Below are positions 11,667 to 50,142 of a stretch of DNA of 64,000 nt, piece by piece (positions within the stretch are counted from its first letter, which is position 1; the number at the start of each line of letters is the position of its first letter). A model generated the notes under the pieces. It did no database searches and was not told where the DNA came from. It saw nothing but the letters and a program-made list of their open reading frames with translations. Made by a program: the position numbers and the translations under genes. The stretch is from a bacterium (GTDB taxonomy: Bacteria > Patescibacteriota > Dojkabacteria > JAKAPS01): positions 1,586-65,585 of the forward strand of contig JAKAPS010000004.1 in NCBI GenBank assembly GCA_021806925.1, read 5' to 3'.

Positions 11667-11684
11667 AAAAACTAATTCGTATCT

Positions 11685-13037: not shown

Positions 13038-13094
13038 ATATCTACATAAATTAATGTATTTCTAGTATAATCCAAACAGATATTTACAAGATTT

Positions 13095-14225
13095 ATGAGA
13101 AGCAAGGTAGATGATCAATTATCTGAAAGTAAAGTTAACAAACGTAGATCAATATTTATTGATGCATATGCATTAGTTCCGCCAATAAGTGGAGTAGGAT
13201 ATTACCTAAAGAGTATTATTGATAATCTTGTAAAATCAAATAAGTATGATATTGAGCTTGGTACTTTATCTTCATTTTATTCTAATGAGAGGAAAATTAA
13301 CTATGAGAATAAAGATGTAAAGCAAAAAATAGTCAAATTTCTACCTAGATCAATATACATACTATTAATGAGATTAAATATTGCACCTCCAATTGATATA
13401 TTCTTTGGAAGGCATGATCTCTATTTTTTTGAGAATTACGTATGCTACCCAGTAAAATCAGGTAAGACTATAACAGTAATTCATGATTTAACATTCAAAA
13501 AGTTTCCTCATGCTGTATTCTTCATAAATAGAATGAATCTAAATTTCATAGTGCCGTACACTTTGAATAAATCAGATGTAATAGTAACAGTATCGAACTC
13601 AATTAAAAAGGAAATATATAGATATTACTCTCCTAAGAAAAAGATACATGTAATATATCCGTCAATTGATAAGTCACTTGAAGAAGATGATAGCCTACTG
13701 AAAACATACTCTCTTAAGAAGGATGAATATATATATTTTGTTGGAAATCTTGAACCAAGAAAAAATTTAATCAACCTTATAAAAGCGTTTAATGAAGCAA
13801 AATTGAAGAATATGAAATTAGTAATTAGTGGAAATAAAGGATGGAAAAATAACAAAATAATGGAATTACTAAAATCAGAGAATGTATTACATATTGGAAG
13901 CCCAACAGAGAGTCAAAAGAATTCACTTATAAAAAACTGCCTATTCTTATCAATTGTATCTATATATGAAGGATTCGGAATGCCAATAATTGAAGGATTT
14001 AAATACAATAAAGCAGTTTTAATGTCTGATATTGAATCATTCCGGGAGATATCTAAAATGAACTTTTTTTGTGACCCGCATAATGTTAATGATATTAGGA
14101 AAAAAATGGAATCACTCTACTACGACACTAGGTTAAGACAAAAGTTAGAAAGACTAGGTACAGAAAGATACAAATACTTTTCTTCAATTGACCAATCTCA
14201 TGAACTAGAAGATATATTTAAATAA
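13095..14225 (+). CDS. glycosyltransferase family 1 (GT4-type)
   Basis: EGFGMPIIEGFKYNKAVLMSDI and FVGNLEPRKN motifs. It is a paralog of 10509-11666. Confidence 0.8.
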   Translation: MRSKVDDQLSESKVNKRRSIFIDAYALVPPISGVGYYLKSIIDNLVKSNKYDIELGTLSSFYSNERKINYENKDVKQKIVKFLPRSIYILLMRLNIAPPIDIFFGRHDLYFFENYVCYPVKSGKTITVIHDLTFKKFPHAVFFINRMNLNFIVPYTLNKSDVIVTVSNSIKKEIYRYYSPKKKIHVIYPSIDKSLEEDDSLLKTYSLKKDEYIYFVGNLEPRKNLINLIKAFNEAKLKNMKLVISGNKGWKNNKIMELLKSENVLHIGSPTESQKNSLIKNCLFLSIVSIYEGFGMPIIEGFKYNKAVLMSDIESFREISKMNFFCDPHNVNDIRKKMESLYYDTRLRQKLERLGTERYKYFSSIDQSHELEDIFK

Positions 14226-14266
14226 AATATGTAGCAGTTATAAAGCTGACTTATATTACTTTTTTG

Positions 14267-15022
14267 TTATATTTGCCCAAATTTCAATTTAAACAAATCC
14301 ATAATTGCCTTTAATATTACCGACAGTTTTGCACCAGTTGCTTTTCCAAATACTCTCCTTTTATGTGTTACAGGTACCTCAACATACTTGTATCCCTTTA
14401 ATTTAAGCTTATATAGTATTTCAGTGTTTATAAGGGCACTATTTGAAACAATGTTTATTGATTTTATTACATCACTCTTGAATAATTTAAATGCACAGTC
14501 TATATCTCTAACATGTACACCAATGAGAAGTTGAACCATTAAATTATATACTTTTGCATTTAGTAGCCTAATGAATGGATCATGTCTAGGTGCTCTATAA
14601 CCTATTATATAGTCAATTCCTTTCTTCTTAGCTATGATATCAAAGAATTTATCTAGATCCTCTACAACAAACTGATTATCGCTATCAGTAAAGAAAACCC
14701 ACTCAAGATTTGTAGATACTGAGAATCCTTTCCTTAAAGCACTACCGTATGAGTGAATTACTTCATTATCATTATCATATATTTTAACATGTTTATTATC
14801 TTTGAAGTTTTTCTCTACAACTTTTCTAGTATTATCAGACGAACCATCATTAACAACTACTATTTGGAATTCACTTAAGAAATCTTTGCTTGATAAGTAT
14901 TTAAGTATATTTTCTACCTGTAGTTTTATGTTTTTCTCTTCATTGAATGCTGGCATAAAAATAGTTAATGAAAGTTTTTTCTCTTTACCTTCAACTTTTT
15001 CTCTTGTACTTTTATTTCCCAT
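14267..15022 (-). CDS. polyprenyl-phosphate glycosyltransferase, GtrB/DPM1-like (GT2)
   Basis: LSLTIFMPAFNEEKNI ... VVVNDGSSDNT ... RDIDCAFKLF. Confidence 0.75.
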   Translation of the reverse strand: MGNKSTREKVEGKEKKLSLTIFMPAFNEEKNIKLQVENILKYLSSKDFLSEFQIVVVNDGSSDNTRKVVEKNFKDNKHVKIYDNDNEVIHSYGSALRKGFSVSTNLEWVFFTDSDNQFVVEDLDKFFDIIAKKKGIDYIIGYRAPRHDPFIRLLNAKVYNLMVQLLIGVHVRDIDCAFKLFKSDVIKSINIVSNSALINTEILYKLKLKGYKYVEVPVTHKRRVFGKATGAKLSVILKAIMDLFKLKFGQI

Positions 15023-15345
15023 AGGTGATTAATTATTTATTTAAGTATCATATAAATAGAAAAATATTGCAACATCAAAAAGACACATTTGTTTTTAGCA
15101 AGTAAAATAGTTATTTATTGAGAAGCCACATTGTTGTAAAAATAATTTTTTTATGATATTAGAATCAAAAAAGTAAGAATAATGAATATGCCTGTGAAGC
15201 ATACAACATATGGGATAAAGATTAAAAAAAATACATATACTTAGAAAAATCCGATAGATAAGAGATATATTGTATATCCAACCCATATATATAAACTTTC
15301 TTTACCTACATATATCTTTGTGAGATAATTTGCAAGTAATACAAA

Positions 15346-16365
15346 ATGAAAATATATATATCTGATATATTAGATAAACCACAATTCAATGATTTACTGG
15401 TGTTAGTACAACAAGTTGAGAAATTAAAAACAAAGACTAATTTAGACTATATAAAATTAACCCTAAGTGATAAATCTGGTGTTTTAGAAGGTAAAATATG
15501 GGATAAGGCAATTGGATTATGTGATAAGGCTGAAGTAGGCGATATTGTGAAAATAACAGGAAAGGTTGATTCAACATATGCATCTAAACCCCAATTGATT
15601 ATAAGTTCACTAAGTAATACAAAATCAGATGCTGGAATCTTCTCTGAAATTAGTATTGATAGAAGTGATTTCTATAAAGAATCAAAAATACCTTTAGAGG
15701 AAAGAAAGGCTAGGACATTTAAATTTATAGATATGATAAAGAATGATCAATTGAGGGATATGCTTAATGATATTTTTAAAGATGAGAAGTATAAGACATA
15801 CTTTACATTTCCAGCAGCAGTTTCAATGCACCATGCATATGTAGGTGGACTTAGTCAGCATGTATTGGAAATGCTTGATCTTGGTGTATATCTATCAAAT
15901 AAATTTGATTATGTAAATTTAGACATTGTTTTAGCTGGAATTCTAATGCATGATTTTGCAAAAATATGGGAATTTGAAGAAGTGCAACAAGGTGTATTTA
16001 AATATTCTGTCCTTGGTAATTTACATGGACATATATTCATGGGTGCAAATTTTGTAAAAGAGAATGCACCTAAATATGGTATTGACGATGAAACATTAAT
16101 AAGACTAATTCACGTTGTATTATCTCATCATGGTAAGAAAGAATGGGGATCACCAGTAGCTCCGAAAACTCTTGAAGCTAGAATAGTTCACAGAGTAGAT
16201 GTAATGTCTGAAGAACTAAGATCTATAGATGATGCAATTGAATCAAGAAGTCAAGATATAGAGAAGATTCAAATACTTGAAGAATACTACTACTTCGGAT
16301 TTGTAAATAATGATTCCCTAGAGTTGGAAAAACATCAAACTGAAGAAGAAATACTAGAAAACTAA
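15346..16365 (+). CDS. OB-fold plus HD-domain 3'-5' exoribonuclease, YhaM-like
   Basis: The N-terminal OB-fold is followed by the HD motifs HHAYVGGLSQHVLEM, LMHDFAKI and LSHHGKKEWG. Confidence 0.65.
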   Translation: MKIYISDILDKPQFNDLLVLVQQVEKLKTKTNLDYIKLTLSDKSGVLEGKIWDKAIGLCDKAEVGDIVKITGKVDSTYASKPQLIISSLSNTKSDAGIFSEISIDRSDFYKESKIPLEERKARTFKFIDMIKNDQLRDMLNDIFKDEKYKTYFTFPAAVSMHHAYVGGLSQHVLEMLDLGVYLSNKFDYVNLDIVLAGILMHDFAKIWEFEEVQQGVFKYSVLGNLHGHIFMGANFVKENAPKYGIDDETLIRLIHVVLSHHGKKEWGSPVAPKTLEARIVHRVDVMSEELRSIDDAIESRSQDIEKIQILEEYYYFGFVNNDSLELEKHQTEEEILEN

Positions 16366-16370
16366 TAGAC

Positions 16371-17495
16371 ATGAATATTGTAATAATTAACCCTACATAT
16401 AACGAGAATGAGAATATAAAGATTCTTGTAAAAGAAATTGGAAAAGTTATACATGAATTGGAGGAGAATAATAAATCTGATACTGTTATACAGCTTGTTG
16501 TAGATGATTCATCTCCTGATGGAACAGGGGAGACTGTAAAGACGCTTATGAAGGATTCTTCATATAGCTTCCTTAGAATAATCGAGGGGAATAAAGAAGG
16601 ATTAGGTAAAGCTTATGTTAGGGGTATGAAGTACGCAATAGAATCTCTTCATGCTGATGTAGTTATTGAGATGGATGCAGATCTACAGCATGATCCAAAA
16701 TTAATAAAGACTTTAATTAAATATATATATGATGGATATGATTTTGTTATTGCGTCAAGATATGTAAGTGGTGGAGCATATGAAAAAACCTGGAGTAAAT
16801 TTAGAGTTTTAAACAGTAAGATTGCAAATATTGTATCAAGAGGAATTGCAGGATTGAAAACTCATGATACAACATCTGGATTCAGAGCTATAAGGTCAAC
16901 AATACTAAATAAAATTGATTTAGAAAACATTACTTCTGATGGTTATGCATTTCAATTCGAATTACTTTACTTGGCAGAGAAAAAACATGCAAAGATAAAA
17001 GAATTTGGGTTCCTATTCAAAGATAGAAAATTTGGTCAAAGTAAAATAAGTTTAAATAAGCAATATATACTTGATATATTGAATTTCTTCTTCCTTGCAT
17101 TTAAGTTTAGATATTTAAACTCTATAAAAATATTAAAATTTGGTGTAGTAGGATTAACAGGAACAATTATTAATCTGATAATCTACCATCTTGTTATTAA
17201 AGATGTAAAAATAGCATTTATAGCAGAGGCAATAGGATATGAATTATCATTATTCTTTAATTTTGGATTTAATCATTACTGGACATTTAAATCAAATGAA
17301 AAGCCACTTAAAGCATTAATAAAATACAATGGAACATCACTTATATCATTAATTGTAACATCAACTGTTACACAGATTACATCACTTTTATTCTCTAAAT
17401 ACAAGACTAATTTCCTTATACCTATACCAGGTATTGGAGTTGGATTCATAGTCAACTATGTATTAGCAAAGAAATTTGTTTGGAGACAAAAATAA
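16371..17495 (+). CDS. GT2 polyprenyl-phosphate glycosyltransferase (DPM1-like) fused to a GtrA-like C-terminal membrane domain
   Basis: IVIINPTYNENENI ... VVDDSSPDGT ... DADLQHDP ... SGFRA, followed by a roughly 120-aa four-TM GtrA-like tail. Confidence 0.75.
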   Translation: MNIVIINPTYNENENIKILVKEIGKVIHELEENNKSDTVIQLVVDDSSPDGTGETVKTLMKDSSYSFLRIIEGNKEGLGKAYVRGMKYAIESLHADVVIEMDADLQHDPKLIKTLIKYIYDGYDFVIASRYVSGGAYEKTWSKFRVLNSKIANIVSRGIAGLKTHDTTSGFRAIRSTILNKIDLENITSDGYAFQFELLYLAEKKHAKIKEFGFLFKDRKFGQSKISLNKQYILDILNFFFLAFKFRYLNSIKILKFGVVGLTGTIINLIIYHLVIKDVKIAFIAEAIGYELSLFFNFGFNHYWTFKSNEKPLKALIKYNGTSLISLIVTSTVTQITSLLFSKYKTNFLIPIPGIGVGFIVNYVLAKKFVWRQK

Positions 17496-17519
17496 ATAGG
17501 ATAGGGGAAATATGTACGC

Positions 17520-18707
17520 CTACATAGTCTTAAATATATTCACAAGCTTTAATACATCATCATTCCAGGAAAATCTCTTAATGTTCTCTGCACCTAATTT
17601 CGTTAATTTGTTTCGTTTCGTTGTATCCGTACTAAGTGTATCAATAGCTTCAGATAAACTATCTACATCGTTATTTTCAACAAATACAGCACCCTTTCCT
17701 GCAGCTTCAACCAAAGATGAGCTTTTTACAGAGATAACAGGAATGCCAAAGAATTGAGCCTCAATAATTGGTAACCCAAATCCTTCATAAACTGAAGAAC
17801 ATATTGCAATTTTTGAACGGTAATATAGGTAGCTCAAAGTTTTATCATTTATTTCACTGTATAATTCAAAATATTTTTTGTATTTTATAGGTATTATTGG
17901 CTTTACACTTTTAGTCTTCCTGGTAGATAACCCGTTTATCCCAACAATAGCCATCTTTAAGTTACTATCCTTGTGTTCGCTAAGGTATTTAATAAATCCG
18001 CTTACTGCAAAGCTATTATTTTTTCTTTTATCAAACCCTCCTAAACATATTATAAGATTCCTATCATTCTGCCTAATATTATTTTCACCATTGAACTTAG
18101 GTCTTGATTTATTTGTTTGTTTTTTTGAATTACTAATTGCTTTAGTATTGTTAAGTAGGAATGATTCAAACTGGGGTGATATTGATGGATATAGTACAAG
18201 GACCTTATCCTCATTTAATTTTGGAAATGTATCCAATATTTCATCTTTTGAAAATTGGGAAACTGTAATTATCAAATCAGCATATCTTTGAGCTTGCAAT
18301 GATTTTATTATAAACCAGATTTTAGAATATAGGTTTATATACCCGCCAAATTTTATCTGTATCAAATCGTGAATATACGTTATTTTTTTACACTTACTAA
18401 ACAATGGAATTGTAAATGATTCAAATGACACGTATATATCCGTTTTGAATTTATTTACTTGATAATTAAGAAGTGTAAAGTCATAAAGAACCCTGAATAC
18501 ATTAATATTAGCTAATTTTTGAGAAAAAAAATGGACTTCAGGAAACTTATTTCTCATTTTAGATAAAATTGATTTGTGTACAAGCACTGTAAAATCAAAT
18601 TCTTCTGAATATTGGCTAAAAAGTATTGTAGATATATTGTATGTTACTCTACCAGTTCCATCCTTTTTATGCATGTGCCTGCAATCTAAAAAAATTCTTT
18701 TCTTCAT
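17520..18707 (-). CDS. glycosyltransferase family 1
   Basis: EGFGLPIIEAQFFGIPVISVKSSSLVEAAG C-terminal GT-B motif. Confidence 0.75.
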   Translation of the reverse strand: MKKRIFLDCRHMHKKDGTGRVTYNISTILFSQYSEEFDFTVLVHKSILSKMRNKFPEVHFFSQKLANINVFRVLYDFTLLNYQVNKFKTDIYVSFESFTIPLFSKCKKITYIHDLIQIKFGGYINLYSKIWFIIKSLQAQRYADLIITVSQFSKDEILDTFPKLNEDKVLVLYPSISPQFESFLLNNTKAISNSKKQTNKSRPKFNGENNIRQNDRNLIICLGGFDKRKNNSFAVSGFIKYLSEHKDSNLKMAIVGINGLSTRKTKSVKPIIPIKYKKYFELYSEINDKTLSYLYYRSKIAICSSVYEGFGLPIIEAQFFGIPVISVKSSSLVEAAGKGAVFVENNDVDSLSEAIDTLSTDTTKRNKLTKLGAENIKRFSWNDDVLKLVNIFKTM

Positions 18708-18718
18708 AGAATGTATAT

Positions 18719-19366
18719 TTAAATAACACCTTTCTTCTTTATTATTGCCATGGGTGTCTTTAATAGAATTAACATATCATGAATAAAAGATTTCCTATCT
18801 ACATATTCTGCATCCATCTTTATTCTTTGGTTGAATGATATGGTTGATCTTCCGCCTACTTGCCATTCTCCTGTTATACCAGGTTTAACTGACAATATCT
18901 TCTTTATATCCTCGCGTGTTTTAGGGTGTTCTTTCCAATATTCATCTATTTCAAATTTAAAATACGGTCTTGGGCCAACAATACTCATATTCCCCTGAAG
19001 CACATCAAAGAATTGTGGCAATTCATCGATACTTGTTGCCCTAATAAATTTACCTATCTTTGTAATTCTTGGATCTTCATCTATACCTAATTTGTTGTTA
19101 TTTCTCCTATACTTTTCATATAACTCAGTATTAGCCTGTAATACCTCCCATGCATTTGGAATCATTGATCTAAATTTCTTCATAAAGAATGGTTTTCCTT
19201 TTAATCCAATATGAACTGGCATATCTTTCTTGAGTGGATAAACACTATGAGAATCTGTTTCATCAAAATACACTAGGATAGCTAGAACAAGCATAATAGG
19301 GGAGAATAAAACTATGAACACGAGAGAAAGTACAATATCTCCACCCCTTTCTATATATTTGTACAT
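18719..19366 (-). CDS. small monotopic phosphoglycosyltransferase (bacterial sugar transferase, WbaP/PglC-like). It is the initiating enzyme of glycan assembly.
   Basis: N-terminal TM helix plus the hallmark DELPQFFDVLQGNMSIVGPRP. Confidence 0.85.
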   Translation of the reverse strand: MYKYIERGGDIVLSLVFIVLFSPIMLVLAILVYFDETDSHSVYPLKKDMPVHIGLKGKPFFMKKFRSMIPNAWEVLQANTELYEKYRRNNNKLGIDEDPRITKIGKFIRATSIDELPQFFDVLQGNMSIVGPRPYFKFEIDEYWKEHPKTREDIKKILSVKPGITGEWQVGGRSTISFNQRIKMDAEYVDRKSFIHDMLILLKTPMAIIKKKGVI

Positions 19367-31067: not shown

Positions 31068-31730
31068 TTGAATAAAGTTATAAATAATGATACTATTCAT
31101 ATCTATATGTCTTATGAAAATCACACACACGAACAATATGAACCTATTGGAGTACTAGCTATTTGTGTACATCCTTTTTTTCTTACTCCATTACGAAGTG
31201 ATAAAGTCTATCAAGAATTCCTTGAAAAAATAAGTAAATTTTACCCAACGAAACGAAATAATATTACGGTTATAACTCCTATGGAAAAAATACCTGGCGT
31301 CACAATACCTAATAATAATAATGAACGTTTCTCTTGGGAAGACCTTCAGGCAGAACTTATTGAGAATGCAGAAAAAGATAGATGTCTTCATTATGCATTC
31401 CCTAATACATTGATTATTAAAGATCTAATTGCACCTGGTTCTGATATAAACAACTTTAAAAGGATATTAAATGAAATGAAATTGATTATCACACCAGAAA
31501 CTCAAATCATCCTTGGTGGTGAATATACACAAGTTTGTGTATTAGGCGTTGCATTTCTTCTATTCAATGAGTTTATTCAAATCAATGAAATAAAAATACG
31601 CAGTGATGCATGTGTCCCTTATAAATCACGCTTTACTGGGGAAAACATGCCAATGGATCTACCTGAAAAATGTGGAATAGAATACTCAGAAGATGGTGAA
31701 TATATTCTACTACGTAGAAAAACTACATAA
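31068..31730 (+). CDS. hypothetical protein. A weak isochorismatase-like resemblance is seen in IILGGEYTQVCVLG.
   Basis: 220-aa ORF. The resemblance is weak. Confidence 0.3.
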   Translation: MNKVINNDTIHIYMSYENHTHEQYEPIGVLAICVHPFFLTPLRSDKVYQEFLEKISKFYPTKRNNITVITPMEKIPGVTIPNNNNERFSWEDLQAELIENAEKDRCLHYAFPNTLIIKDLIAPGSDINNFKRILNEMKLIITPETQIILGGEYTQVCVLGVAFLLFNEFIQINEIKIRSDACVPYKSRFTGENMPMDLPEKCGIEYSEDGEYILLRRKTT

Positions 31731-31744
31731 AGAGATTCTTTAAA

Positions 31745-32608
31745 TTATACAAAATGCTTTAGATAGCTAACCCATACGTCATGGTTATATTCTTTACCCA
31801 TCATACTATTACATATTGTATCAGTAATGTCACTAGGCACATTTCTGCTATTCCTTGTAGATAACATTAGTATTAAATTTAAAATTGTAGTTAGGGTTAC
31901 TAACCCTTCTATTATATTTCCTTTACATAAATCTTCATTTACTTTTATTAGGTTCGTTTTTAATATTTCATCATTATAGTTTTCTGTTGTATTGTTCCCT
32001 GATACTAAATTACCAACAAATTTCATAATACAACTTACAAAACCATCATTATCATCTGATATATTAACAAATGGAAAATAATTTATTAACAATTGATATA
32101 TATTTCTTTCTAGATTACTCTGATCAAATTTATTGATCGATATAGTATCTTCTGATTCTTTTAATACATCACTACTTACATATCCGAATTTATGTGCCAG
32201 ATATATTAAAAGTAAATCATTATCTTCTGCTCTCTCTAAATTAATTCCTTTATCACATTTAATTTCATATACTACAGCCCTAGATATATCCTTTTCTATT
32301 TCACTATCGATCACTACTCTACCTGACGTTCTTAGAATTAAGCTTAAACAATTTGATAGAATAACATATTTATGAATTTGATCAATATGATCATTATTCC
32401 ATATATCGTTCGATAATAAATGAGTTAATAATGGACTCCTATCTTCAACAACTCCATGTAAAACCTTAATTAAACTACCAATGTTGCCTGAATCTGAATT
32501 AGAGTATTCTTGTCCAATTAGATTATATTTCTCTAATAGATTATGTAAGGAGAAAGATTCTGCATTATTACATTCATAAGACATTCTACACATAAATTGT
32601 AGACACAA
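31745..32608 (-). CDS. hypothetical protein
   Basis: 287-aa ORF with no motif. Confidence 0.35.
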   Translation of the reverse strand: MCLQFMCRMSYECNNAESFSLHNLLEKYNLIGQEYSNSDSGNIGSLIKVLHGVVEDRSPLLTHLLSNDIWNNDHIDQIHKYVILSNCLSLILRTSGRVVIDSEIEKDISRAVVYEIKCDKGINLERAEDNDLLLIYLAHKFGYVSSDVLKESEDTISINKFDQSNLERNIYQLLINYFPFVNISDDNDGFVSCIMKFVGNLVSGNNTTENYNDEILKTNLIKVNEDLCKGNIIEGLVTLTTILNLILMLSTRNSRNVPSDITDTICNSMMGKEYNHDVWVSYLKHFV

Positions 32609-32718
32609 ATAACACTATTTTGCAACATATACAAAAAAAGACTGATATACTAATTCACTTTGAGTTTCCTTTCTAAATAAACCAAAGCTTTAAAGTATAT
32701 CAGCCTATTAACAAAAAT

Positions 32719-32752
32719 AAGGAACAAATAAATTGTTCCTTATTTAAGTATT
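32719..32752. terminator. hairpin aaataaggaacaa-ataaa-ttgttccttattt downstream of surface-protein paralog 1
   Basis: 13-bp stem with a T-run following on the minus strand. An identical copy lies at 37817-37852. Confidence 0.55.
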
Positions 32753-32760
32753 AATCAAAT

Positions 32761-33762
32761 TTACTTTACATTAAATACTACTCCAAGTTCTGGACCACAG
32801 TATCCATTTGCACAATCATGATTTGTTGATAAATAATATCCGTAACTATTTGCATCTACTTGATACTCTCCAGTTGAATTAAATGTAAATTCACTTACTA
32901 TTTGGAATGTGTTACCAGCAGAATATTTAGGATTATTCTTAGTTGCAATATATTGTATTGTACGTTGATATGGCGCAAAGTAGTTATATTCACCACTTGG
33001 AACTTTACTATTTAATTCATATGGAGTTTGACTTCCATTGGAGTTTATTTCATCTGCACTTATTCCTATATATTCATCTGGTATGTTTCTAACATGATTT
33101 ACTGTGTAGTCAGCTTTAACATCTAATACTGTTCCTGCAGGTATACTTATAGTATTCCCTTTTACACATATTATACTAGCTACTGGGTAACCTTGGTTAT
33201 AAACAGCATCAAAAACCATCTTTACACTGTAGTAATAATAATTATTAGATACTGTATAGGTTGAAGGACACTGTAATCCTGTTGGTGTTGGTGTCGGTGT
33301 TGCTACTGTAGGACTTACTGTTGGCGTTGATGTCGGTGTTCCTGTAGGACTTACTGTTGGTGTTGGCGTCGGTGTTGCTACTGTAGGACTTACTGTTGGT
33401 GTTGGCGTACTAGAAGTAGTACAAACTTCTTCTCGGTTTATTAATTGGCAGGAATTATTTGTTTTTGTTGGTGCAGTATTTCCTGTACTAGTTCCACCAC
33501 TTGTATTTGCACTTGAAAATACACTTCTGTCTCCACCGGAAACTCCGCTTGATATATTATTATATTGGGTTAAATGGTTTCTACCGTAATTACCCCCCAT
33601 AGAGAATATTCCTCTACTCTCTACGTTATTAATATAATTTCTGTTTAGAATCAAGAATGCAAAAACTGACAAAAGAGAAACAAAAGCAATTGATAATATC
33701 AATCCTTTCTTTAAACCTCCCTTTTCTTCAGTATCAATCTTTTTTATATTTATTGAACCCAT
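32761..33762 (-). CDS. membrane-anchored surface protein, paralog 1. It has an N-terminal signal anchor, a PT-rich mucin-like linker and a conserved roughly 130-aa C-terminal domain with a CxxxxC pair.
   Basis: The likely true start is the ATG (MGSINIKK) 6 nt after a consensus -10. The TTG start used by the track lies inside the -35. Its N- and C-termini are near-identical to 37863-38828. Confidence 0.6.
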   Translation of the reverse strand: MGSINIKKIDTEEKGGLKKGLILSIAFVSLLSVFAFLILNRNYINNVESRGIFSMGGNYGRNHLTQYNNISSGVSGGDRSVFSSANTSGGTSTGNTAPTKTNNSCQLINREEVCTTSSTPTPTVSPTVATPTPTPTVSPTGTPTSTPTVSPTVATPTPTPTGLQCPSTYTVSNNYYYYSVKMVFDAVYNQGYPVASIICVKGNTISIPAGTVLDVKADYTVNHVRNIPDEYIGISADEINSNGSQTPYELNSKVPSGEYNYFAPYQRTIQYIATKNNPKYSAGNTFQIVSEFTFNSTGEYQVDANSYGYYLSTNHDCANGYCGPELGVVFNVK

Positions 33763-33798
33763 AACTATATTATAGCACCCATAGTATAATAATGTCAA
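33763..33798 (-). promoter_or_regulatory. consensus sigma70-type promoter (TTGACA, 18 bp, TATAAT, 6 nt, ATG). The mRNA is leaderless or near-leaderless.
   Basis: Read directly on the minus strand. An identical copy sits upstream of paralog 2. Confidence 0.55.
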
Positions 33799-33806
33799 GG
33801 AGCTGA

Positions 33807-34745
33807 TTACTGCTTAAGCCTTTGTATAAATTCATTAGGAATATCAAGGGAAAATGAGTATTCCTTTCCTCTATATATAAATGTCAGACTTTTTGCAAGT
33901 AGATACATTCGTTTTTCATTTTTGGTCCCAGAATAGAGCTTATCACCTAATATAGGAGTCCCTAAGTATTTGAGATGAAGTCTAATTTGATGTGTTCTAC
34001 CAGTTTTCGGAGCTATTTTGAAAAGAATCATGTTATTCTTTATCTCGATTGGTGATATATATGATAGAGAATACTTAGATACTCTAAGTTTATTAGTAGA
34101 AAACATCATTTTTCTATACTCCCTTGGATTATGGGCTACATATCCCTCCACTTTAAATTCATTTTTATCACCATTTATATCTACAAATTTCCTTTCTATT
34201 GATAGCGATGAAGGTATTCCTATTGCAAGGTATTCCTTATACACCTCTCGTTTTGCAAACAACTCCATCAGCTCTCTTTGAGATTCATAGTTTTTAGCAA
34301 TTAAAAGTAACCCACTTGTATCTTTATCTATTCTATGAACAATATATGGTCTAGTTGTTACTGATTTTGGGAAAGACACGTCATTTAATCCGTATTTATA
34401 TACAAGCCAGTTAAGAACTGTATTTGCTCTTTCATTTTTAGATGTATGAACACTTACTCCTACTGGTTTATCTATGACCAGAAAATCATCATTTTCAAAA
34501 ATAATAGGAATATCCATATTTGCAGGTTCAATTGTTTTAAAACTGTTTTTAATTGATTCATTCTGTTGTAGAACAGCATCCAAAGTATTCTCTTGTATAT
34601 AGACTATATCACTGCTTCTTGTCATTTTTGAAGGGTTAGTAACAAATGTATTATTTAATTCAACCTTCCCATCACGGATAAGATGGAGTATTTGAGTTCT
34701 GGAAATTTGCGGATATTTTAAACTTGCGAGTTTATCGAATCTCAT
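33807..34745 (-). CDS. RluA-family pseudouridine synthase with an N-terminal S4-like domain
   Basis: HRIDKDTSGLLLIAKN catalytic-Asp motif. Confidence 0.85.
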   Translation of the reverse strand: MRFDKLASLKYPQISRTQILHLIRDGKVELNNTFVTNPSKMTRSSDIVYIQENTLDAVLQQNESIKNSFKTIEPANMDIPIIFENDDFLVIDKPVGVSVHTSKNERANTVLNWLVYKYGLNDVSFPKSVTTRPYIVHRIDKDTSGLLLIAKNYESQRELMELFAKREVYKEYLAIGIPSSLSIERKFVDINGDKNEFKVEGYVAHNPREYRKMMFSTNKLRVSKYSLSYISPIEIKNNMILFKIAPKTGRTHQIRLHLKYLGTPILGDKLYSGTKNEKRMYLLAKSLTFIYRGKEYSFSLDIPNEFIQRLKQ

Positions 34746-35106
34746 TTTCGATTATCTTCTCGCATTCGATGCAATAAATTATACTTGGATCTGCTTCAAG
34801 ACGCTCTTTACCTATGTCTTTACCACATTTTCTACACTTCCCGTATTTCTTTGTTTTTATCAATTTTAAAGAATACCTTATATTCTTCAGGTATCTTTTT
34901 AGGATTGACTCACTTTCAATATTTTCAAGTCTTTTCTGTTCACCATCCTGGCTAGCAGCAGGGTCAATATCCTCAAGATATTTATCTGTATCCTTGAGAT
35001 TTATTTCATTTTCAATCCTTTCAATACTATCTTCAAGAACTTCCTCTTCATTCTTAAGCTTCTTCTTATTTCTCTTAATTAAATCACTAAATTTTATCAT
35101 AATCAC
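34732..35106 (-). CDS. DksA/TraR-family C4 zinc-finger protein
   Basis: C-terminal CRKCGKDI...CIECE four-Cys finger after an acidic coiled-coil region. Confidence 0.55.
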   Translation of the reverse strand: MIMIKFSDLIKRNKKKLKNEEEVLEDSIERIENEINLKDTDKYLEDIDPAASQDGEQKRLENIESESILKRYLKNIRYSLKLIKTKKYGKCRKCGKDIGKERLEADPSIIYCIECEKIIENEIR

Positions 35107-35122
35107 TCTATTGTATATTTTA

Positions 35123-35800
35123 CTACTTTTTTATTTCAAATGTAAAAGCAGATAATTTTCCTACCCTTCTTCCAAATAGATCAAAAAGAGCTGGAAAGTG
35201 TATAAGATCATTCCTATACATAAAGTATGTAATACACGACATATAAACAACAGCCGTTGATGCGTAATATATTGTATTCAAACTATATATATTTGATATT
35301 AATATAGTTGAGTTATACAGAATGTTTACTAGAAAATATATGAATAAGGAATAGTAAAACCATTTTATGTTTTTGTAAAGAACGACTAGTGATATATATA
35401 TCACACCATAGAATAACAGGAAGTGCCATTCTGTAAGCACAAATTTAGAAATATTTATATGTGAGACAAGATACATACATGTAATAGAGAAGAAAATATT
35501 TAATAGTATGTACGTTCTTAATATCTCAAGTACAAATACAGGTGTGAATTTAACATAACTTAATTTAAACACAAGAATTGCAGTTGGTATAAGCAATAGA
35601 ACTGTCAAAGGGAAAAAAATATCAGGTGAATATATGAAAGGGATTGCTGGTATTATTGATATGAATATTATCCTAAAGAATATATCAAAACTATCGATTT
35701 TATCATAATTGTATTTAAAGCATTTTACATAAAGACTAAATGATGAAAATATTAATGAGAATATAAAGAAACCAAAATCTACTAATATATTATCTATCAT
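35123..35800 (-). CDS. polytopic membrane protein, hypothetical
   Basis: 225 aa with about 7 TM helices. Confidence 0.4.
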   Translation of the reverse strand: MIDNILVDFGFFIFSLIFSSFSLYVKCFKYNYDKIDSFDIFFRIIFISIIPAIPFIYSPDIFFPLTVLLLIPTAILVFKLSYVKFTPVFVLEILRTYILLNIFFSITCMYLVSHINISKFVLTEWHFLLFYGVIYISLVVLYKNIKWFYYSLFIYFLVNILYNSTILISNIYSLNTIYYASTAVVYMSCITYFMYRNDLIHFPALFDLFGRRVGKLSAFTFEIKK

Positions 35801-35831
35801 TTATTTTCTTAACATGATAGCCTTAAATAAA

Positions 35832-37073
35832 TCAGCTTGTCAAAATAGTTTCAAATATATCATTAGAAGCGATACTTTTAAAATATTCTTTAATTTTTAC
35901 ACTCTTAATTTTACTAATTGTGGAAATTATATCAACGTAATTATTTACTTTATCTTCATAATAGTAGTCATAGCAATATAGCTTATTCATCACACCTGGA
36001 TTATTTATCTCTTTTTTATATATTGATTTTAGGTACTTAACTCCCCTATTGATATCTATGCCTTCCCCATTAGATATCTTCTCTAGTGAATTCCTTATTT
36101 CAGCTATAACTTTTTTAACATTTCTTTTGGTAACTGAAGAATATATATAGCAGATTGAAAAATCATGAAAATAAAATACTTCATAATCAATTGAGTAAAC
36201 CATACCAGAATTTTCCCTTAGAGTTTGCCATAGGTATGAACTTGTTCCACCTAATAATATACTCATACCTGCTTCAAGTAAAAGTGATTCATTTGATCCA
36301 TATCGTGGACCTATAAATCCAACCGACAGAAATGTTTCTGATTTGCTCTTTTTTACTACCTTTTTGTATAGTGTTTTATTTGTACTATGACCTATATCCG
36401 TATACTTCGGAAGTGCTCTTTTACGCTGCACATTGTTTATATTATGCACATCTTTAACATTGTTAAATACTTGTCTGTATATTGAAGTATATGACGCCTT
36501 TGATGTTATTGAAATAATCAGATTCTCAGGAACACATATTTTCTTTATAAATCTTCTAACTTGCCCAATGGTTATATTATCTTCGTTCCCTATGATATCC
36601 CTTGATATTTCTGGATAGTTATACAATATTTGCCCATACACTAAGTCAGATAGTTCTTTTTCTGAATCATATCCATTACTAATTCTTTCCTCATGAATGA
36701 CCTTCTTTTCACTTTCAAAATCTTTCTTACTAAATTTGTTTCTAAAAATTAAATCTAGAACTATATCTATCAATTCACATATCTTTTTTGAATTAATCTC
36801 TGCTGTTATTTCAATAAATTCTGCTGAGGTATAGGCATTTAACTCACCCTCATTTTCATCAAGAAATTTACTTATTGAAAATTGAGAATAATTTACACTT
36901 CCCTTTAGAATTATATGTTCAACAAAATGAGACAACCCTATGATTTTATCATCCTTTGCACCATGCCTAATTACAATATGTAAGTATGAAGTATCATTAT
37001 TACTTTGGTGATAATTTAATTTGCTATATTTATTTACTAATAGAGTCCCATTTTTTATATCAAATACTTTCAT
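35832..37073 (-). CDS. M16-family (pitrilysin/insulinase-like) zinc peptidase
   Basis: Inverted zinc motif HFVEHIILKGS (HxxEH). Confidence 0.75.
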   Translation of the reverse strand: MKVFDIKNGTLLVNKYSKLNYHQSNNDTSYLHIVIRHGAKDDKIIGLSHFVEHIILKGSVNYSQFSISKFLDENEGELNAYTSAEFIEITAEINSKKICELIDIVLDLIFRNKFSKKDFESEKKVIHEERISNGYDSEKELSDLVYGQILYNYPEISRDIIGNEDNITIGQVRRFIKKICVPENLIISITSKASYTSIYRQVFNNVKDVHNINNVQRKRALPKYTDIGHSTNKTLYKKVVKKSKSETFLSVGFIGPRYGSNESLLLEAGMSILLGGTSSYLWQTLRENSGMVYSIDYEVFYFHDFSICYIYSSVTKRNVKKVIAEIRNSLEKISNGEGIDINRGVKYLKSIYKKEINNPGVMNKLYCYDYYYEDKVNNYVDIISTISKIKSVKIKEYFKSIASNDIFETILTS

Positions 37074-37621
37074 TTTGACTCTCTGCCAACATATTCCCCA
37101 TTTTCTGTATTTACACGTACAACTTCACCCTGTTTTACAAAAAGCGGAACTTGAATAATAAGGCCAGTTTCTAACTCTGCGGGTTTTGTAGGATTACTTG
37201 ATGAATTTCCTTTAACCCCCTCTTCAGTATCTTTTACAGTAAGTTCAACAATCTTAGGAATATCAACGCTTACAAGTTTTCCATCAATACTCATTCCAAT
37301 TACTTTTTCACCGTTCTTCAGGTATTTTATATCATCCCCTATATCAACAGAAACCTGTTCAAATGACTCAATATCCATAAAATACCCAATTGAGTCTTCT
37401 GAATATATAAACTGATAATTAGATTTACTCACATCTGCATCATCAAATTTATCATTATTACTGAAGCTTTTATCAACAATTGACAATGTTTTCAAGTTTT
37501 TTACACGTACCTTTATTACGGCCCCTCCCCTACCCATAGCTATATGATCATACTTTAAGACAATAAATGTATCCTTGTCCATCTTAAATACTGCACCTGG
37601 TTTTAAATCTGTTGCTAACAT
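37070..37621 (-). CDS. efp: elongation factor P
   Basis: The N-terminus LKPGAVFKMDKDTFIVLKYDHIAMGRGGAVIKVRVKNLKT is characteristic, including the KOW and conserved-loop region. Confidence 0.9.
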   Translation of the reverse strand: MLATDLKPGAVFKMDKDTFIVLKYDHIAMGRGGAVIKVRVKNLKTLSIVDKSFSNNDKFDDADVSKSNYQFIYSEDSIGYFMDIESFEQVSVDIGDDIKYLKNGEKVIGMSIDGKLVSVDIPKIVELTVKDTEEGVKGNSSSNPTKPAELETGLIIQVPLFVKQGEVVRVNTENGEYVGRESK

Positions 37622-37816
37622 AACTTTTTGGATTATATATTAAAAGAAGGAAGAATGGAAGAAACAAAACACAAGTATATATAGATGAATAATAAAGATA
37701 AGAGAAAACAAATGCTGTATGCAGTATGTAACAAAAAAGACTGACATACTAATTCCCTTTGAGTTTCCTTTCTAAATAAACCAAAGCTTTAAAGTATATC
37801 AGTCTATTAACAGAAA

Positions 37817-37852
37817 TAAGGAACAATATATATCTTGTTCCTTATTTGAGTA
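37817..37852. terminator. hairpin identical to 32719-32752, downstream of surface-protein paralog 2
   Basis: Same inverted repeat, aaataaggaacaa...ttgttccttattt. Confidence 0.55.
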
Positions 37853-37862
37853 TTAATCTTAT

Positions 37863-38828
37863 TTACTGTACATTAAATACTATTCCAAGTTCTGGACCAC
37901 AGTATCCATTTGCACAATCATTATTTGTTGACAAATAATATCCATAACTATTTGCATCTATTTGATATTCGCCAGTTGAACCAAATATAAATTCGCTTGC
38001 TATCTGGAATGTGTTACCAGCAGAATATTTAGGATTATTCTTTGTTGCAATATATTGTATTGTACGTTGGTATGGTGCAAAATTTCTATATTCACTACCA
38101 GGTACCTTACTATTTAATTCGTATGGTGTCTGACTTCCATTTAGATTTATTTCATCTGCACTTATTCCTATATATTCATCAGATATATTTCTTGTATGAT
38201 TTATTGTGTAATATGCTTCAACATCAACAGTTGATCCTACTGGAATACTTATTTTAGTTCCATTAACACATATTCCATTTTTATCAGTTAATATTAATTT
38301 TACTGAATAGAAATAATTATTATCTGCATTAGTCATAATGTATGTTTCACTGCATTGTATAGCATTACTTGTTTTTTTACTTTGTATTTTATTAATTAGA
38401 TTTGAAAGATTATTACCAGCGTTACTGAAAATTTTATTTATATTTTGTGTGCCTTGTCCTTGTGACATTTTTACTGGTGTAGGATTACAATCTAATAATC
38501 TAACCAATACTATTGGAAGTGGGCATTTATTATTTGTAACAAAATTATTATTTAATGTTGTTTGTTGTTTCTTAGTAGAATTATCAGATGGTTTATAGTC
38601 AGTCCTTGAATTATATGTAACAACAGATGATATACCATTCGAGTTCCTACTATAATTACCACCCATAGAGAATACTCCCCTACTCTCTACATTGGATATA
38701 TAGTTTCTGTTTAATACTAGGAACGTAAATACTGATAAAAGAGAAACAAAAGCAATTGATAATATCAATCCTTTCTTTAAACCTCTCTTTTCTTCAGTAT
38801 CAATTTTTTTTATATCTATTGAACTCAT
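37863..38828 (-). CDS. membrane-anchored surface protein, paralog 2. It has the same N-terminal anchor and C-terminal domain as paralog 1 but a different stalk (N/S/T/K-rich, no PT repeat).
   Basis: Direct protein comparison with 32761-33762. The ATG is MSSIDIKK after an identical promoter. Confidence 0.6.
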   Translation of the reverse strand: MSSIDIKKIDTEEKRGLKKGLILSIAFVSLLSVFTFLVLNRNYISNVESRGVFSMGGNYSRNSNGISSVVTYNSRTDYKPSDNSTKKQQTTLNNNFVTNNKCPLPIVLVRLLDCNPTPVKMSQGQGTQNINKIFSNAGNNLSNLINKIQSKKTSNAIQCSETYIMTNADNNYFYSVKLILTDKNGICVNGTKISIPVGSTVDVEAYYTINHTRNISDEYIGISADEINLNGSQTPYELNSKVPGSEYRNFAPYQRTIQYIATKNNPKYSAGNTFQIASEFIFGSTGEYQIDANSYGYYLSTNNDCANGYCGPELGIVFNVQ

Positions 38829-38864
38829 AACTATATTATAGCACCTATAATATAATAATGTCAA
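38829..38864 (-). promoter_or_regulatory. consensus sigma70-type promoter, a duplicate copy (TTGACA, 18 bp, TATAAT, 6 nt, ATG)
   Basis: Sequence identical to 33763-33798 except for one spacer base. Confidence 0.55.
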
Positions 38865-38968
38865 GGAGCTGATTACTGCTTAAGCCTTTGTATAAATTCA
38901 TTGGGAATATCCCAGAATACTTACTGCAGTAGATATTGACAAATATATATATATAGTAACATTATGGT

Positions 38969-39136
38969 ATGAACGAAAATCAATATGAACCCTGTGAATC
39001 TGAAGATAGAAAAACTATTAGTAAAGTATCTAGTGCATGTTCTAATGCTGGTATGAACGAAAATCAATATGAACCCTGTGAATCTGAAGATAGAAAAACT
39101 ATTAGTAAAGTATTTAGTGCATGTTCTGATAAATGT
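38969..39136 (+). repeat. two near-identical 84-bp tandem copies, in frame
   Basis: Copy 1 spans 38969-39052 and copy 2 spans 39053-39136. They differ only in the last roughly 10 bp. Confidence 0.85.
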
Positions 39137-39385
39137 AAAAAAATTATTAGTGAACATCCAAAAACTAGTTTTGTGCTAAGTGGTCTCGCGTTAGGTACAC
39201 TGTATGTGCTTTCAACACATTTTCCATCTGTAATTGTTGCAAATCTTATATCTACTGGATTTTTCTTTAGAGCTTTTTTTGATCCAAGAGATTGGAGGAA
39301 AATAAATAAAAAAAAGATAAATATTTATACTATATTTCACTTTGTTCTAATTTTATTTATCCTTAAGTTTGTTCACCTCCATTGA
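38969..39385 (+). CDS. small membrane protein whose N-terminal 28 aa is tandemly duplicated
   Basis: MNENQYEPCESEDRKTISKV(S/F)SACS occurs twice, then a TM segment. The DNA carries an 84-bp direct tandem repeat. Confidence 0.45.
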   Translation: MNENQYEPCESEDRKTISKVSSACSNAGMNENQYEPCESEDRKTISKVFSACSDKCKKIISEHPKTSFVLSGLALGTLYVLSTHFPSVIVANLISTGFFFRAFFDPRDWRKINKKKINIYTIFHFVLILFILKFVHLH

Positions 39386-40074: not shown

Positions 40075-40118
40075 CTGAGTGACGAATAATACCCCTTTTT
40101 GTGTTTAAATATATAGTA

Positions 40119-40202
40119 TGCCGAGGAAGAGAGTCGAACTCTTATGAAGTCACCTTCGCTGGATTTTGAGTCCAGTGCGTCTGCCAGTTCCGCCACCTCG
40201 GC
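40119..40202 (-). tRNA. tRNA-Leu (anticodon CAA), type II with a long variable arm and no encoded CCA
   Basis: The reverse complement folds into a cloverleaf. The acceptor pairs GCCGAGG/CCTCGGC. The anticodon loop is CTCAAAA. The T-loop is TTCGACT. The discriminator is A. Confidence 0.85.
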
Positions 40203-40254
40203 ACATTTCCACACTCTTCTTATACATTATAGATCCGATATCTGTCAATATATA

Positions 40255-45270: not shown

Positions 45271-45617
45271 ATATTGTAATATATTTTCACTTTGAATACA
45301 AATCAGAGTAAGGTGAACTATTTTCACTAGATTCCGTATTGCAATGCTTTTTTAAACAGAAGAAGCAAAATTACGTTGGATAAAATATGTTTTAGTAAAG
45401 TACACACTTTTATATACCTGCTTAACCCTTCTACCTCTATGGAAAAAAGGGTGAATAGCTACATAGTGAGTAAGGGAGAATATGAAGAGATAATTCTAGC
45501 AAAATATCACGGATTGTGTATATTAAATGAAACTGAATCGAAAAATCAAAAAAGTGGTATTAATATAAGGAAGCTGTTAATCGTACAGCTTGATATGGTT
45601 ATAAGGAAATTGAAAAA

Positions 45618-45704
45618 CGGAGAGGGTGAGATTCGAACTCACGGTATGCGTTAACATACGACGGTTTTCAAGACCGTTACCATAATCCACTCGGTCACCT
45701 CTCC
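45618..45704 (-). tRNA. tRNA-Ser (anticodon UGA), type II with a long variable arm and no encoded CCA
   Basis: The reverse complement is GGAGAGGTGACCGAGTGG...CTTGAAA...GTTCGAATCTCACCCTCTCCG. It has a 3-bp D-stem, a variable-arm hairpin GTATG/CATAC and discriminator G. Confidence 0.85.
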
Positions 45705-45801
45705 AATAACTTTCTAGTGTATTATACCTTACCTTACGCATATATATCAATAAGATATTTTTTATGATATAATGTTAACACAAAAGTTGAAGTAGTAATC
45801 T

Positions 45802-49332: not shown

Positions 49333-50142
49333 TTACACTACTGCGAAGAAGTCATCAATATCTAAAGAAATTGAGCAAGCTACTTTACGCCTATCATCCT
49401 CTTCCAAAGGAAAGTATACCATATTATCCCCTATGTAACATCCTTCATTTTTTTTGTTCAAAATGTATTTCCACCATTTATATTCATTCTCATTATTCTT
49501 TATACCATCGCTTTGAAATTTTCCAATAAGGACACTTGGCAAATCTTTAATATGAACTAATTCTGGATCCATTGACAAGCAAACCAGTGTAGAGAATTTT
49601 GCATTAAATATGTCTTTATAGTCATCATATCCAAGATAAGTGACAGGCAAAACATCTGAATTTAATATATAGTACATGTTAGTTCTTACAACAGGAGCAA
49701 TATAGTTGGTTACAAATGCCATCATGTGGCAATTCAAGTATAAGTTATCCCCTACTATCCTAACATTTCCACCTACTGGAGAATATATACTCTCTTTCTG
49801 AGGAATAGTATTAAGTACTAATTTAGACCCATCAACAGCAACTGATGCATCTATAGGGCTTTTAATAATTAATTCGACAGGTAATATACTTCTGTGAGCA
49901 AGGATACTCCCCTTTCTTACTATATCTCCGTTTTTAACATCAAGATATTTCCCTATATTATTAGAATTCAATTTTAGTTCATCTTTCAAGTCAATAGTAA
50001 CCTCTCTATATGATATATCCCTAAGTACAAGTAAATCCCCTGCCGATACTTTTGTTCCATTCTTAACCTTTATATCATCAATATTCCTTACATCAATAGG
50101 AAATTCATATTCTAAAATTTTAGGAATCTTAAATTTTCTCAT
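49333..50142 (-). CDS. hypothetical protein
   Basis: 269-aa ORF. It overlaps the upstream gene by 14 bp, forming an operon pair. Confidence 0.35.
   Translation of the reverse strand: MRKFKIPKILEYEFPIDVRNIDDIKVKNGTKVSAGDLLVLRDISYREVTIDLKDELKLNSNNIGKYLDVKNGDIVRKGSILAHRSILPVELIIKSPIDASVAVDGSKLVLNTIPQKESIYSPVGGNVRIVGDNLYLNCHMMAFVTNYIAPVVRTNMYYILNSDVLPVTYLGYDDYKDIFNAKFSTLVCLSMDPELVHIKDLPSVLIGKFQSDGIKNNENEYKWWKYILNKKNEGCYIGDNMVYFPLEEDDRRKVACSISLDIDDFFAVV

Follow-up and report, generated by a model that had tools for sequence, protein, structure and literature searches.

In the modular secreted proteins of the Cex/CenA type from Cellulomonas fimi, conserved modules are joined by PT-box linkers, rich in proline and threonine, whose repeat number and sequence vary freely. 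The Vlp/Vsp-type variable surface families of Mycoplasma share a promoter or 5′ region and a targeting sequence and differ in their internal repeats. Here we describe a pair of genes, X1 and X2, that can be compared with these systems, with phage receptor-binding proteins and adhesins that exchange modules, and with the LytR_C (PF13399) envelope proteins of Dojkabacteria-like and other Patescibacteria. They lie in a 64,000-nucleotide stretch of a Dojkabacteria genome (GenBank assembly GCA_021806925.1, contig JAKAPS010000004.1, positions 1,586–65,585 of the forward strand), which we call the window and to which all coordinates below refer unless a relative is named. X1 and X2 belong to two copies of one promoter-to-terminator unit. 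The two ends of the encoded proteins have been kept by purifying selection, while the stalk between them has diverged. Our preferred reading, held with modest confidence, is that they are lineage-specific paralogous envelope proteins whose differences reflect differential constraint and replication slippage.

Like the PT-box proteins, X1 carries a tandemly repeated PT-rich segment between two modules, but the repeat is confined to copy 1, and the modules are a membrane anchor and a domain with no Pfam match rather than catalytic or carbohydrate-binding units. With the Mycoplasma Vlp/Vsp families the pair shares a near-identical promoter and N-terminus, a differing internal repetitive region and a reduced genome, whereas X has no lipobox, conserves its C-terminal domain, numbers only two copies and displays no invertase or switch element that we could see. 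The mosaic similarity of the two paralogues recalls phage receptor-binding proteins and adhesins; in those, however, the distal binding module is the variable one, whereas the distal module of X is conserved, and no relatives of X were found in phage or viral collections. The LytR_C proteins resemble X in genomic slot, strand, length and a basic tail followed by a single transmembrane helix, with the rest of the protein extracytoplasmic. They differ in that X has no LytR_C domain and no detectable sequence or profile similarity to them, and has a low-complexity stalk and six cysteines that the LytR_C proteins lack.

The duplicated unit and its surroundings are laid out as follows.

32621–33845, minus strand: original unit (copy 1), with the rluA tail, promoter, X1 and two terminator hairpins
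32761–33762, minus strand: X1 coding sequence, 333 amino acids (P0002), an open reading frame with the same start as the public annotation and a ratio of non-synonymous to synonymous substitution rates (dN/dS) below 1 against X2
33846–37719, minus strand: unique 3.9-kb spacer with rluA, a dksA/traR-type zinc finger gene, a gene for a 225-amino-acid membrane protein, an M16 peptidase gene and efp (Pfam assignments)
37720–38911, minus strand: copy 2 of the duplicated unit, derived, about 100 nt upstream of efp
37863–38828, minus strand: X2 coding sequence, 321 amino acids (P0001), an open reading frame matched to X1 by BLASTP

According to repeat finding, MAFFT and blastn alike, one 1.2-kb gene unit is present in two copies, placed in direct orientation 5.1 kb apart. 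Read along the minus strand, each runs from the last 39 nt of rluA through a σ70 promoter and the open reading frame (333 or 321 codons for amino acids) to two terminator hairpins. Homology at the DNA level falls into two blocks, 32621–33175 versus 37720–38274 (86% identity over 555 nt) and 33577–33845 versus 38643–38911 (90% over 269 nt), separated by about 400 nt that do not align; the protein products match with a BLASTP E value of 6e-127. The outer limits of the unit are sharp to within a few nucleotides, the adjoining 60 nt on each side being only 63–68% identical in gapped alignment, which is no better than the unalignable middle of the gene. The segmental duplication proposed in the initial annotation is thus borne out: the two regions do align at the DNA level over their flanks, and the shared domains are not low-complexity sequence. 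Its coordinates needed adjustment for copy 2, from 37722–38905 to 37720–38911, and both genes lie on the minus strand.

The contig is metagenome-assembled, and short-read assemblies break at this repeat, so one gene assembled twice or a chimera of strains might in principle mimic this pattern. We consider such an artefact extremely improbable. The conserved parts of the copies are about 10% diverged, their middles differ beyond alignment and each copy has unique flanks of its own. In addition, an independently assembled Logan contig of 3,980 nt, SRR13206618_49300, is 100% identical to 33807–37786, reproducing the spacer, and at either end it passes into one of the repeats, which is the pattern expected when a short-read assembly breaks at a true repeat. 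The duplication is real and beyond chance. A look for further copies turned up neither a third copy nor a donor cassette in the window or among the deposited proteins of this genome, and X1 and X2 are the only family members in its annotated proteome.

The direction of copying follows from the gene next to copy 1.

33807–34745, minus strand: rluA/RluD-family pseudouridine synthase gene (Pfam PseudoU_synth_2 and S4)
33807–33845, minus strand: last 39 nt of rluA, inside the duplicated unit, identical at 38 of 39 positions to 38873–38911
38873–38911, minus strand: passenger copy of the last 39 nt of rluA, outside any gene at that place

The C-terminus encoded by rluA, ...DIPNEFIQRLKQ, is similar to the C-termini of RluA in relatives, so the tail is native to rluA and, as the initial annotation had noticed, copy 2 carries it along. 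Two of the closer relatives, L083 (ENA ERZ25039496 contig_21009) and L084 (GCA_025450075.1), share with the window the gene order dnaB...efp, M16 peptidase, membrane protein, dksA, rluA, a slot discussed below, yebC, ruvC, ruvA and ruvB, interrupted in the relatives by a zinc-ribbon protein gene after efp, with identities to the window of 60–63% for DnaB, 52% for EF-P, 37% for RluA and 41% for YebC. Neither relative has an X-like gene over 21 kb, the dnaB–efp interval included; the interval upstream of efp is variable among relatives, and L083 has a toxin-like gene there. Given the rluA tail on copy 2 and the lack of an X-like gene upstream of efp in these relatives, copy 1 is the original, as previously proposed. 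The second copy may have been inserted in one step as a 1.2-kb piece; alternatively, 5.1 kb may have been duplicated in tandem, with later loss of the efp-to-rluA segment from one copy. The 38/39 identity of the two rluA tails was also considered as a sign of recent conversion and set aside: it is not significant (P about 0.1), only the copy-2 side being free to change.

Two other differences from these relatives were seen in the same region. A gene for a double-zinc-ribbon (DZR) protein of about 250 amino acids stands between efp and the M16 gene in both (L083:14107–14886, L084:13277–14029) and is missing from the window, where efp shares 4 nt (37070–37073) with the M16 gene. The DnaB of L084 (GCA_025450075.1; L084:10001–11836, 611 amino acids) contains an intein (PF14890), which the 443-amino-acid DnaB of the window does not.

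The divergence between the copies is unevenly distributed along the protein, whose parts in X1 are the following.

33577–33762, minus strand: X1 residues 1–62, a lysine-rich, predicted cytoplasmic tail (1–20), a transmembrane helix (21–39) and a conserved juxtamembrane segment (40–62)
33274–33576, minus strand: X1 stalk, residues 63–163, 101 amino acids, 55% serine, threonine and proline; its proximal half is homologous to X2 and contains the Cys105/Cys114 pair
33279–33405, minus strand: PT-rich tandem repeat in the X1 stalk, a 39-nt unit in 3.3 copies (Tandem Repeats Finder score 212), with internal 51-nt copies 96% identical
32764–33273, minus strand: X1 C-terminal domain, residues 164–333, 75% identical to X2, rich in tyrosine and asparagine, acidic, with four cysteines and predicted to be mostly β

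By the Nei–Gojobori method, dN/dS between X1 and X2 is 0.12 over residues 1–60 and 0.21 over residues 206–333. These values at both ends show purifying selection in both copies and mark X1 and X2 as real coding genes. In a sliding window, similarity drops abruptly after about residue 62 and returns gradually on the C-terminal side, from a QC..TY motif to an ISIP motif. The C-terminal domain described earlier as near-identical over roughly 150 residues is indeed shared, over about 165–170 residues, but near-identity is limited to the last ~128. The stalks, previously called completely different, are not so throughout: the proximal part (about 54 residues, up to the second cysteine) aligns significantly (z = 3.95, 0 of 500 shuffles reaching the score) and keeps its two cysteines, and only the distal ~50 residues are unalignable (z = −0.5). 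Stalk length is retained, at 101 residues in X1 and 95 in X2 (residues 63–157, rich in asparagine, serine, threonine and lysine, with helix weakly predicted).

Nearly all of the unalignable distal stalk of X1 is the PT-rich repeat, in place of which X2 has a short NPTPV. The internal copies of the repeat, at 96% identity, are more alike than the conserved ends of the two paralogues, so the repeat was made in situ after the copies had separated. Local GC content within it is 40%, with proline and threonine codons that mostly end in A. Apart from these codons the composition of X1 and X2 is native, which rules out a foreign origin of the gene. Mutagenesis by a diversity-generating retroelement was ruled out as well: the substitutions between X1 and X2 (51 transitions, 26 transversions; 24, 21, 17 and 15 differing sites at A, T, G and C) form an ordinary, symmetric spectrum that is not adenine-specific, and no reverse transcriptase domain was found among the open reading frames scanned, a set that covered the small ones in part.

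The initial annotation had interpreted conserved ends with a replaced middle as cassette exchange. Two findings weaken this reading, the homology of the proximal stalk and the origin of the PT-rich part as a local 39-nt tandem amplification. A related reading is a mosaic history, in which the duplication is old and either its ends were homogenised by gene conversion or its middle was swapped with another allele, so that conserved ends and an exchanged middle would serve as a diversification device. Part of its evidence is synonymous: at codons for identical residues, third positions differ in 13 of 30 cases (43%) in the middle and in 32 of 159 (20%) at the ends (p = 0.01), and the same comparison within the C-terminal domain gives 9 of 16 for residues 164–205 and 20 of 107 for residues 206–333. 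The abrupt transition at about residue 62 and the non-coding flanks, which differ at only 16 of 226 positions (7%), point the same way. Against it, the C-side transition is gradual and has no breakpoint, the longest identical run in the C-terminal block (38 nt) is unremarkable (permutation P = 0.14), the proximal stalk is homologous and the PT part was amplified in place, and no third copy or donor cassette was found in the places searched above. The low divergence of the flanks is, moreover, accounted for by conservation of the promoter and of the hairpin stems. On this evidence we regard a mosaic history as a minority possibility, somewhat unlikely.

The membrane anchor was mapped with a 19-residue Kyte–Doolittle window and AlphaFold2 confidence. 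Residues 21–39 form the only strongly hydrophobic segment (Kyte–Doolittle values of 2.7–2.9, maximum 2.86 in X1), and a helix at residues 10–50 is the sole part that AlphaFold2 predicts confidently. The C-terminal domain, or head, of about 165–170 residues has an isoelectric point of 4.5–4.8 and is rich in tyrosine and asparagine. Six cysteines are kept in both proteins as three neighbouring pairs (105/114, 165/199 and 317/322 in X1). All lie past the transmembrane helix, which fits an extracytoplasmic, disulphide-bonded protein, and disulphides probably stabilise the head. The most economical reading is that the helix is probably an uncleaved signal anchor with the N-terminus inside and the remainder of the protein outside. 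The previously proposed combination of an N-terminal membrane anchor and a conserved C-terminal domain holds and is consistent with surface exposure.

Other modes of surface attachment find no match in these sequences. The first cysteine is at residue 105 in X1 and 102 in X2, too far in for a lipobox, and the proteins end in ...GPELGVVFNVK and ...GPELGIVFNVQ, with no C-terminal hydrophobic segment and no LPXTG sortase signal. A pilin-like or cleaved secreted protein, beginning with a signal peptide of class III (prepilin-type) or of the ordinary cleaved kind and not with a permanent anchor, is suggested by the long basic leader that ends in K-K-G ahead of a hydrophobic helix and by a C-terminal Cys-x4-Cys loop loosely reminiscent of the pilin D-region; type IV pili are also prominent in cultivated Patescibacteria (PMC12206443). 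The prepilin motif (G followed by F/M-x-x-x-E) is not formed, however, by KKG·LILSI, which has no glutamate at +5 after Gly20, and no N_methyl or prepilin match was obtained in Pfam or NCBIfam. A low-complexity stalk of 100 residues directly after the helix is incompatible with a pilin fold, and no pilus genes were present among the window open reading frames scanned, leaving this alternative very improbable.

Both copies are preceded by the same promoter, as had been reported.

33769–33798, minus strand: X1 promoter, TTGACA, 18-nt spacer, TGc-TATAAT, matching the consensus at 12 of 12 positions
38835–38864, minus strand: X2 promoter, with hexamers and spacing identical to those of X1

These are the only 12/12 matches to TTGACA-18-TATAAT in the 64 kb, and both have the extended −10 TG. 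In either gene the −10 hexamer ends 6 nt ahead of the ATG, which makes a leaderless mRNA probable, and X1 has no Shine–Dalgarno motif upstream. In this respect the pair is not special: a Shine–Dalgarno-like motif precedes only 2 of 38 confident genes of the window, while −10-like hexamers are strongly enriched 5–14 nt upstream of the start codons of these 38, a distribution which suggests that mRNAs in this genome as a rule have no leader or a very short one. The next-best promoter matches, at 11/12, include sites at 40248 and 45750 (minus strand) directly upstream of genes for tRNA-Leu (40118–40203) and tRNA-Ser (45617–45705). Their position at tRNA genes suggests that consensus promoters are functional here and mark highly expressed genes, and X1 and X2 may accordingly be predicted to be highly expressed.

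Two further features of the start region were noted. The extended −10 region resembles a tandem copy of about 20 nt of the start region (33745–33783 and 38811–38849; Tandem Repeats Finder period 20): within 33745–33783, cTATGGGTgCtATAA is followed 20 nt on by tTATGGGTtCaATAA, which includes the ATG. The promoter may have arisen when the 5′ end of the open reading frame was duplicated locally. Codons 6–9 of X2 (ATA AAA AAA ATT, 38800–38812) contain a run of eight A, where X1 (ATA AAA AAG ATT, 33734–33746) has six. Such an early homopolymer could allow slippage-based on/off switching, but runs of this kind are common in DNA of 29% GC.

The common terminator that the initial annotation had assigned to both copies is present, in fact as two conserved hairpins.

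32715–32745, minus strand: hairpin 1 of X1, a 13-bp stem with a 5-nt loop, found by a terminator consensus scan
32633–32706, minus strand: hairpin 2 of X1, a 13-bp outer stem with an inner stem, followed by seven T, found by folding
37732–37847, minus strand: the two hairpins of copy 2

A stable stem-loop and a T-run just after the stop codon, the marks of an intrinsic terminator, are found in the predicted terminators of X1 and X2. The whole 146-nt 3′ flank of X1, which holds both hairpins, folds with −45 kcal/mol (z = −7.0 relative to shuffled sequences). Comparison of the copies shows changes in just 2 of 84 paired columns, both with preservation of the pair, but in 15 of 64 unpaired columns (p = 1e-4); stems that change so much less than the unpaired columns are under selection. 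Hairpin 2 may act as a further intrinsic terminator, or it may be a small structured element of the 3′ region. No Rfam family matches the 3′ element, which rules out a known RNA family.

Searches for relatives returned the pair itself. A word-indexed search of 5.8 billion protein clusters found X1 and X2 only. When 1.84 billion representatives were searched exhaustively with an HMMER profile, just two repeat proteins were added, which are probably repeat artefacts: the match to an FN3-repeat protein (E = 1.2e-11) is summed over seven repeats of about 9 bits each, its hhalign probability is 4.7%, and Pfam detects no FN3 domain in the C-terminal domains of X1 and X2. No homologue was accepted from Pfam (E ≤ 10), NCBIfam, PHROGs or Protein Data Bank (PDB) sequences, and no relatives were found in GTDB representative genomes, JGI metagenome contigs, IMG/VR or GenBank phages. 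X1 and X2 were also looked up by exact match in the contig index, which had no record of them. Weak matches to TIGR04526 and phrog_15511, which occur in copy 1 only and cover its PT-rich stalk together with some of the head, were discounted and attributed to the biased composition of the stalk. An open reading frame at 49333–50142 was likewise rejected as a relative of the head: its tblastn match (E = 0.017) was treated as chance, and it encodes neither an anchor nor a Pfam domain. AlphaFold2 reached a predicted local distance difference test score (pLDDT) of 35 for full-length X2 from the single sequence, and of 44, with a predicted template modelling (TM) score of 0.39, for the head from the two-sequence alignment. 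The head model, which bears on a possible fibronectin type III (FN3) or Ig-like β-sandwich, is mostly β but unreliable, and Foldseek found nothing at E ≤ 0.001 with it, TM scores being below 0.3.

In relatives, the place that X1 occupies between rluA and yebC is held by another kind of protein.

31068–33806: slot region in the window
L083:18197–20571: slot region in L083
L084:17298–18314: slot region in L084
L027:10871–11656: slot region in L027
L068:5157–5954: slot region in L068

In L083 and L084 the slot encodes an N-terminally anchored protein of 338–344 amino acids with a C-terminal LytR_C domain. L027 and L068, both far more distant, also have a LytR_C protein there, and all four slot proteins match PF13399. 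In the window, the slot contains X1 followed by two further orphan open reading frames, one of 287 amino acids, for which the 5.8 billion clusters returned only itself, and one of 220 amino acids on the other strand, without a Pfam or NCBIfam match. X1 shares with the LytR_C slot proteins the single N-terminal transmembrane anchor and the position directly downstream of rluA. It has the LytR_C signature in neither copy: no Pfam match to X1 or X2 was found at E ≤ 0.01, their C-terminal domains have none at E ≤ 10, and hhalign probabilities against the four slot proteins are 0.3–0.6%. As this signature survives divergences deeper than that between the window and L083, X is likelier to be a replacement than a drifted orthologue; a counterpoint is that the fast-evolving 225-amino-acid membrane protein is also unrecognisable at the distance between the window and its relatives.

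These facts bear on a housekeeping alternative, in which X is an envelope component that has taken over from the LytR_C protein, for example in organising the cell wall or a surface glycopolymer, and has no part in host contact. X1 equals the slot proteins of L083 and L084 in position, strand, size (333 versus 338–344 amino acids) and anchor, a LytR_C protein fills the slot even in L027 and L068 while none is detectable in the 64-kb window, and the head is conserved rather than diversifying. The resemblance does not extend to sequence or profile, as the comparisons above show; a LytR_C gene may lie outside the 64 kb; and the shared position could be a coincidence in a slot that also holds two other orphan genes. 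As a full account of the locus we think this possible but on balance unlikely, and a housekeeping envelope role is at least as likely as one in host contact.

Combining these observations, we propose the following model, in which X1 and X2 are lineage-specific paralogous envelope proteins. A lysine-rich N-terminal tail of about 20 residues and a 19-residue transmembrane helix would act as an uncleaved signal anchor, followed by the conserved juxtamembrane segment and a largely low-complexity stalk of about 100 residues. The stalk, with a reach of about 30 nm if fully extended, would hold the acidic, tyrosine- and asparagine-rich and probably β-rich head of ~165 residues outside the membrane. 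Each gene would be transcribed as a monocistronic unit from the strongest-consensus σ70 promoter of the window, with a leaderless start and two tandem intrinsic terminators. The gene would have come first to lie directly downstream of rluA, in the slot of the LytR_C-domain anchored protein of relatives; a 1.2-kb copy that included the last 39 nt of rluA would then have been placed 5.1 kb off, upstream of efp. Since then, anchor, head, promoter and terminator stems would have been maintained by selection in each copy, with the linker free to vary by substitutions and indels at a retained length, and replication slippage would have amplified a 13-residue PT-rich unit in the linker of copy 1.

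Several points weigh against this model. Constraint does not readily account for the higher synonymous divergence of the middle, which may reflect partial gene conversion of the ends. This heterogeneity, together with flanks at 7%, is not what a single duplication age predicts, unless constraints on codons or structure are at work. With only two sequences, all evolutionary tests are low-powered. Structure prediction failed (pLDDT of 35 and 44), the globular nature of the head is argued from conservation and composition, and topology, surface exposure and expression are deduced from the DNA and protein sequences.

The initial annotation had placed these genes among adhesins or receptor-binding proteins that diversify. 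The observed pattern is the opposite, the distal head being conserved (dN/dS of 0.21) and only the linker varying, which is usual for two-module proteins whose linker is disordered. A different version of the host-contact idea would see in the conserved head a new domain, specific to this lineage, by which an episymbiont recognises its host or adheres to it, and which displaced the LytR_C protein and is presented in two highly expressed versions on chemically different stalks, one rigid, possibly glycosylated and PT-rich and the other polar, with ends kept alike by gene conversion. We find this version doubtful. Any binding function of the head is putative; a role in host contact is plausible, with nothing at this locus that points to it specifically. 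The evolutionary pattern is largely that of ordinary paralogues.

The genes lie in an ordinary, low-GC (29.5%) chromosomal region that encodes DnaB, histidyl- and cysteinyl-tRNA synthetases (HisRS, CysRS), RuvABC, YebC, a release factor (RF), single-stranded DNA-binding protein (SSB), CCA-adding enzyme, an archaeal-type AMP/thymidine phosphorylase and a large glycan-biosynthesis cluster. Among relatives of its DnaB, the named ones come nearly all from Candidatus Dojkabacteria or Patescibacteria, at 50–54% identity; others reach 60–64%. The surface-glycan cluster (1558–19366) comprises genes for a Wzy-like O-antigen ligase/polymerase, a Wzx flippase, several GT2 and GT4 glycosyltransferases, a GtrA-domain protein and an initiating sugar transferase, and a tyrosine recombinase gene lies within it at 4163–5173. 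Beginning 54 nt beyond the boundary of copy 2 is an 84-nt tandem duplication (38965–39130; 1.9 copies, 98% identical) that repeats a 28-residue segment (MNENQYEPCESEDRKTISKV..) at the 5′ end of a divergent 138-amino-acid open reading frame (38969–39385), for which no Pfam, NCBIfam or PHROGs match was found. The phosphorylase gene (53614–55110) overlaps by 7 nt that of a β-CASP/metallo-β-lactamase (MBL) ribonuclease (55104–56495), for which the top-scoring NCBIfam model is type VII CRISPR-associated Cas14, at 401 bits against a cut-off of 800, followed by archaeal aCPSF1. AMP phosphorylase is reportedly part of a nucleoside/RuBisCO pathway in candidate-phyla-radiation (CPR) bacteria; in the 64-kb window we saw no RuBisCO.

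On a small scale, the locus shows cleanly how an entire promoter-to-terminator unit has been copied inside a reduced genome. It shows modules and regulatory elements kept by selection while the linker between them drifts and expands by slippage, and an orphan gene in a slot that is conserved among relatives. The most informative of the new facts are the positional replacement of the LytR_C gene, the origin of the PT stalk in place and the conserved tandem terminators. All cultivated Patescibacteria are obligate episymbionts, and little is known of the molecules by which they recognise hosts, apart from type IV pili (PMC12206443). A protein that is specific to its lineage, tethered to the membrane and conserved in its outer domain is a reasonable candidate for such a molecule.

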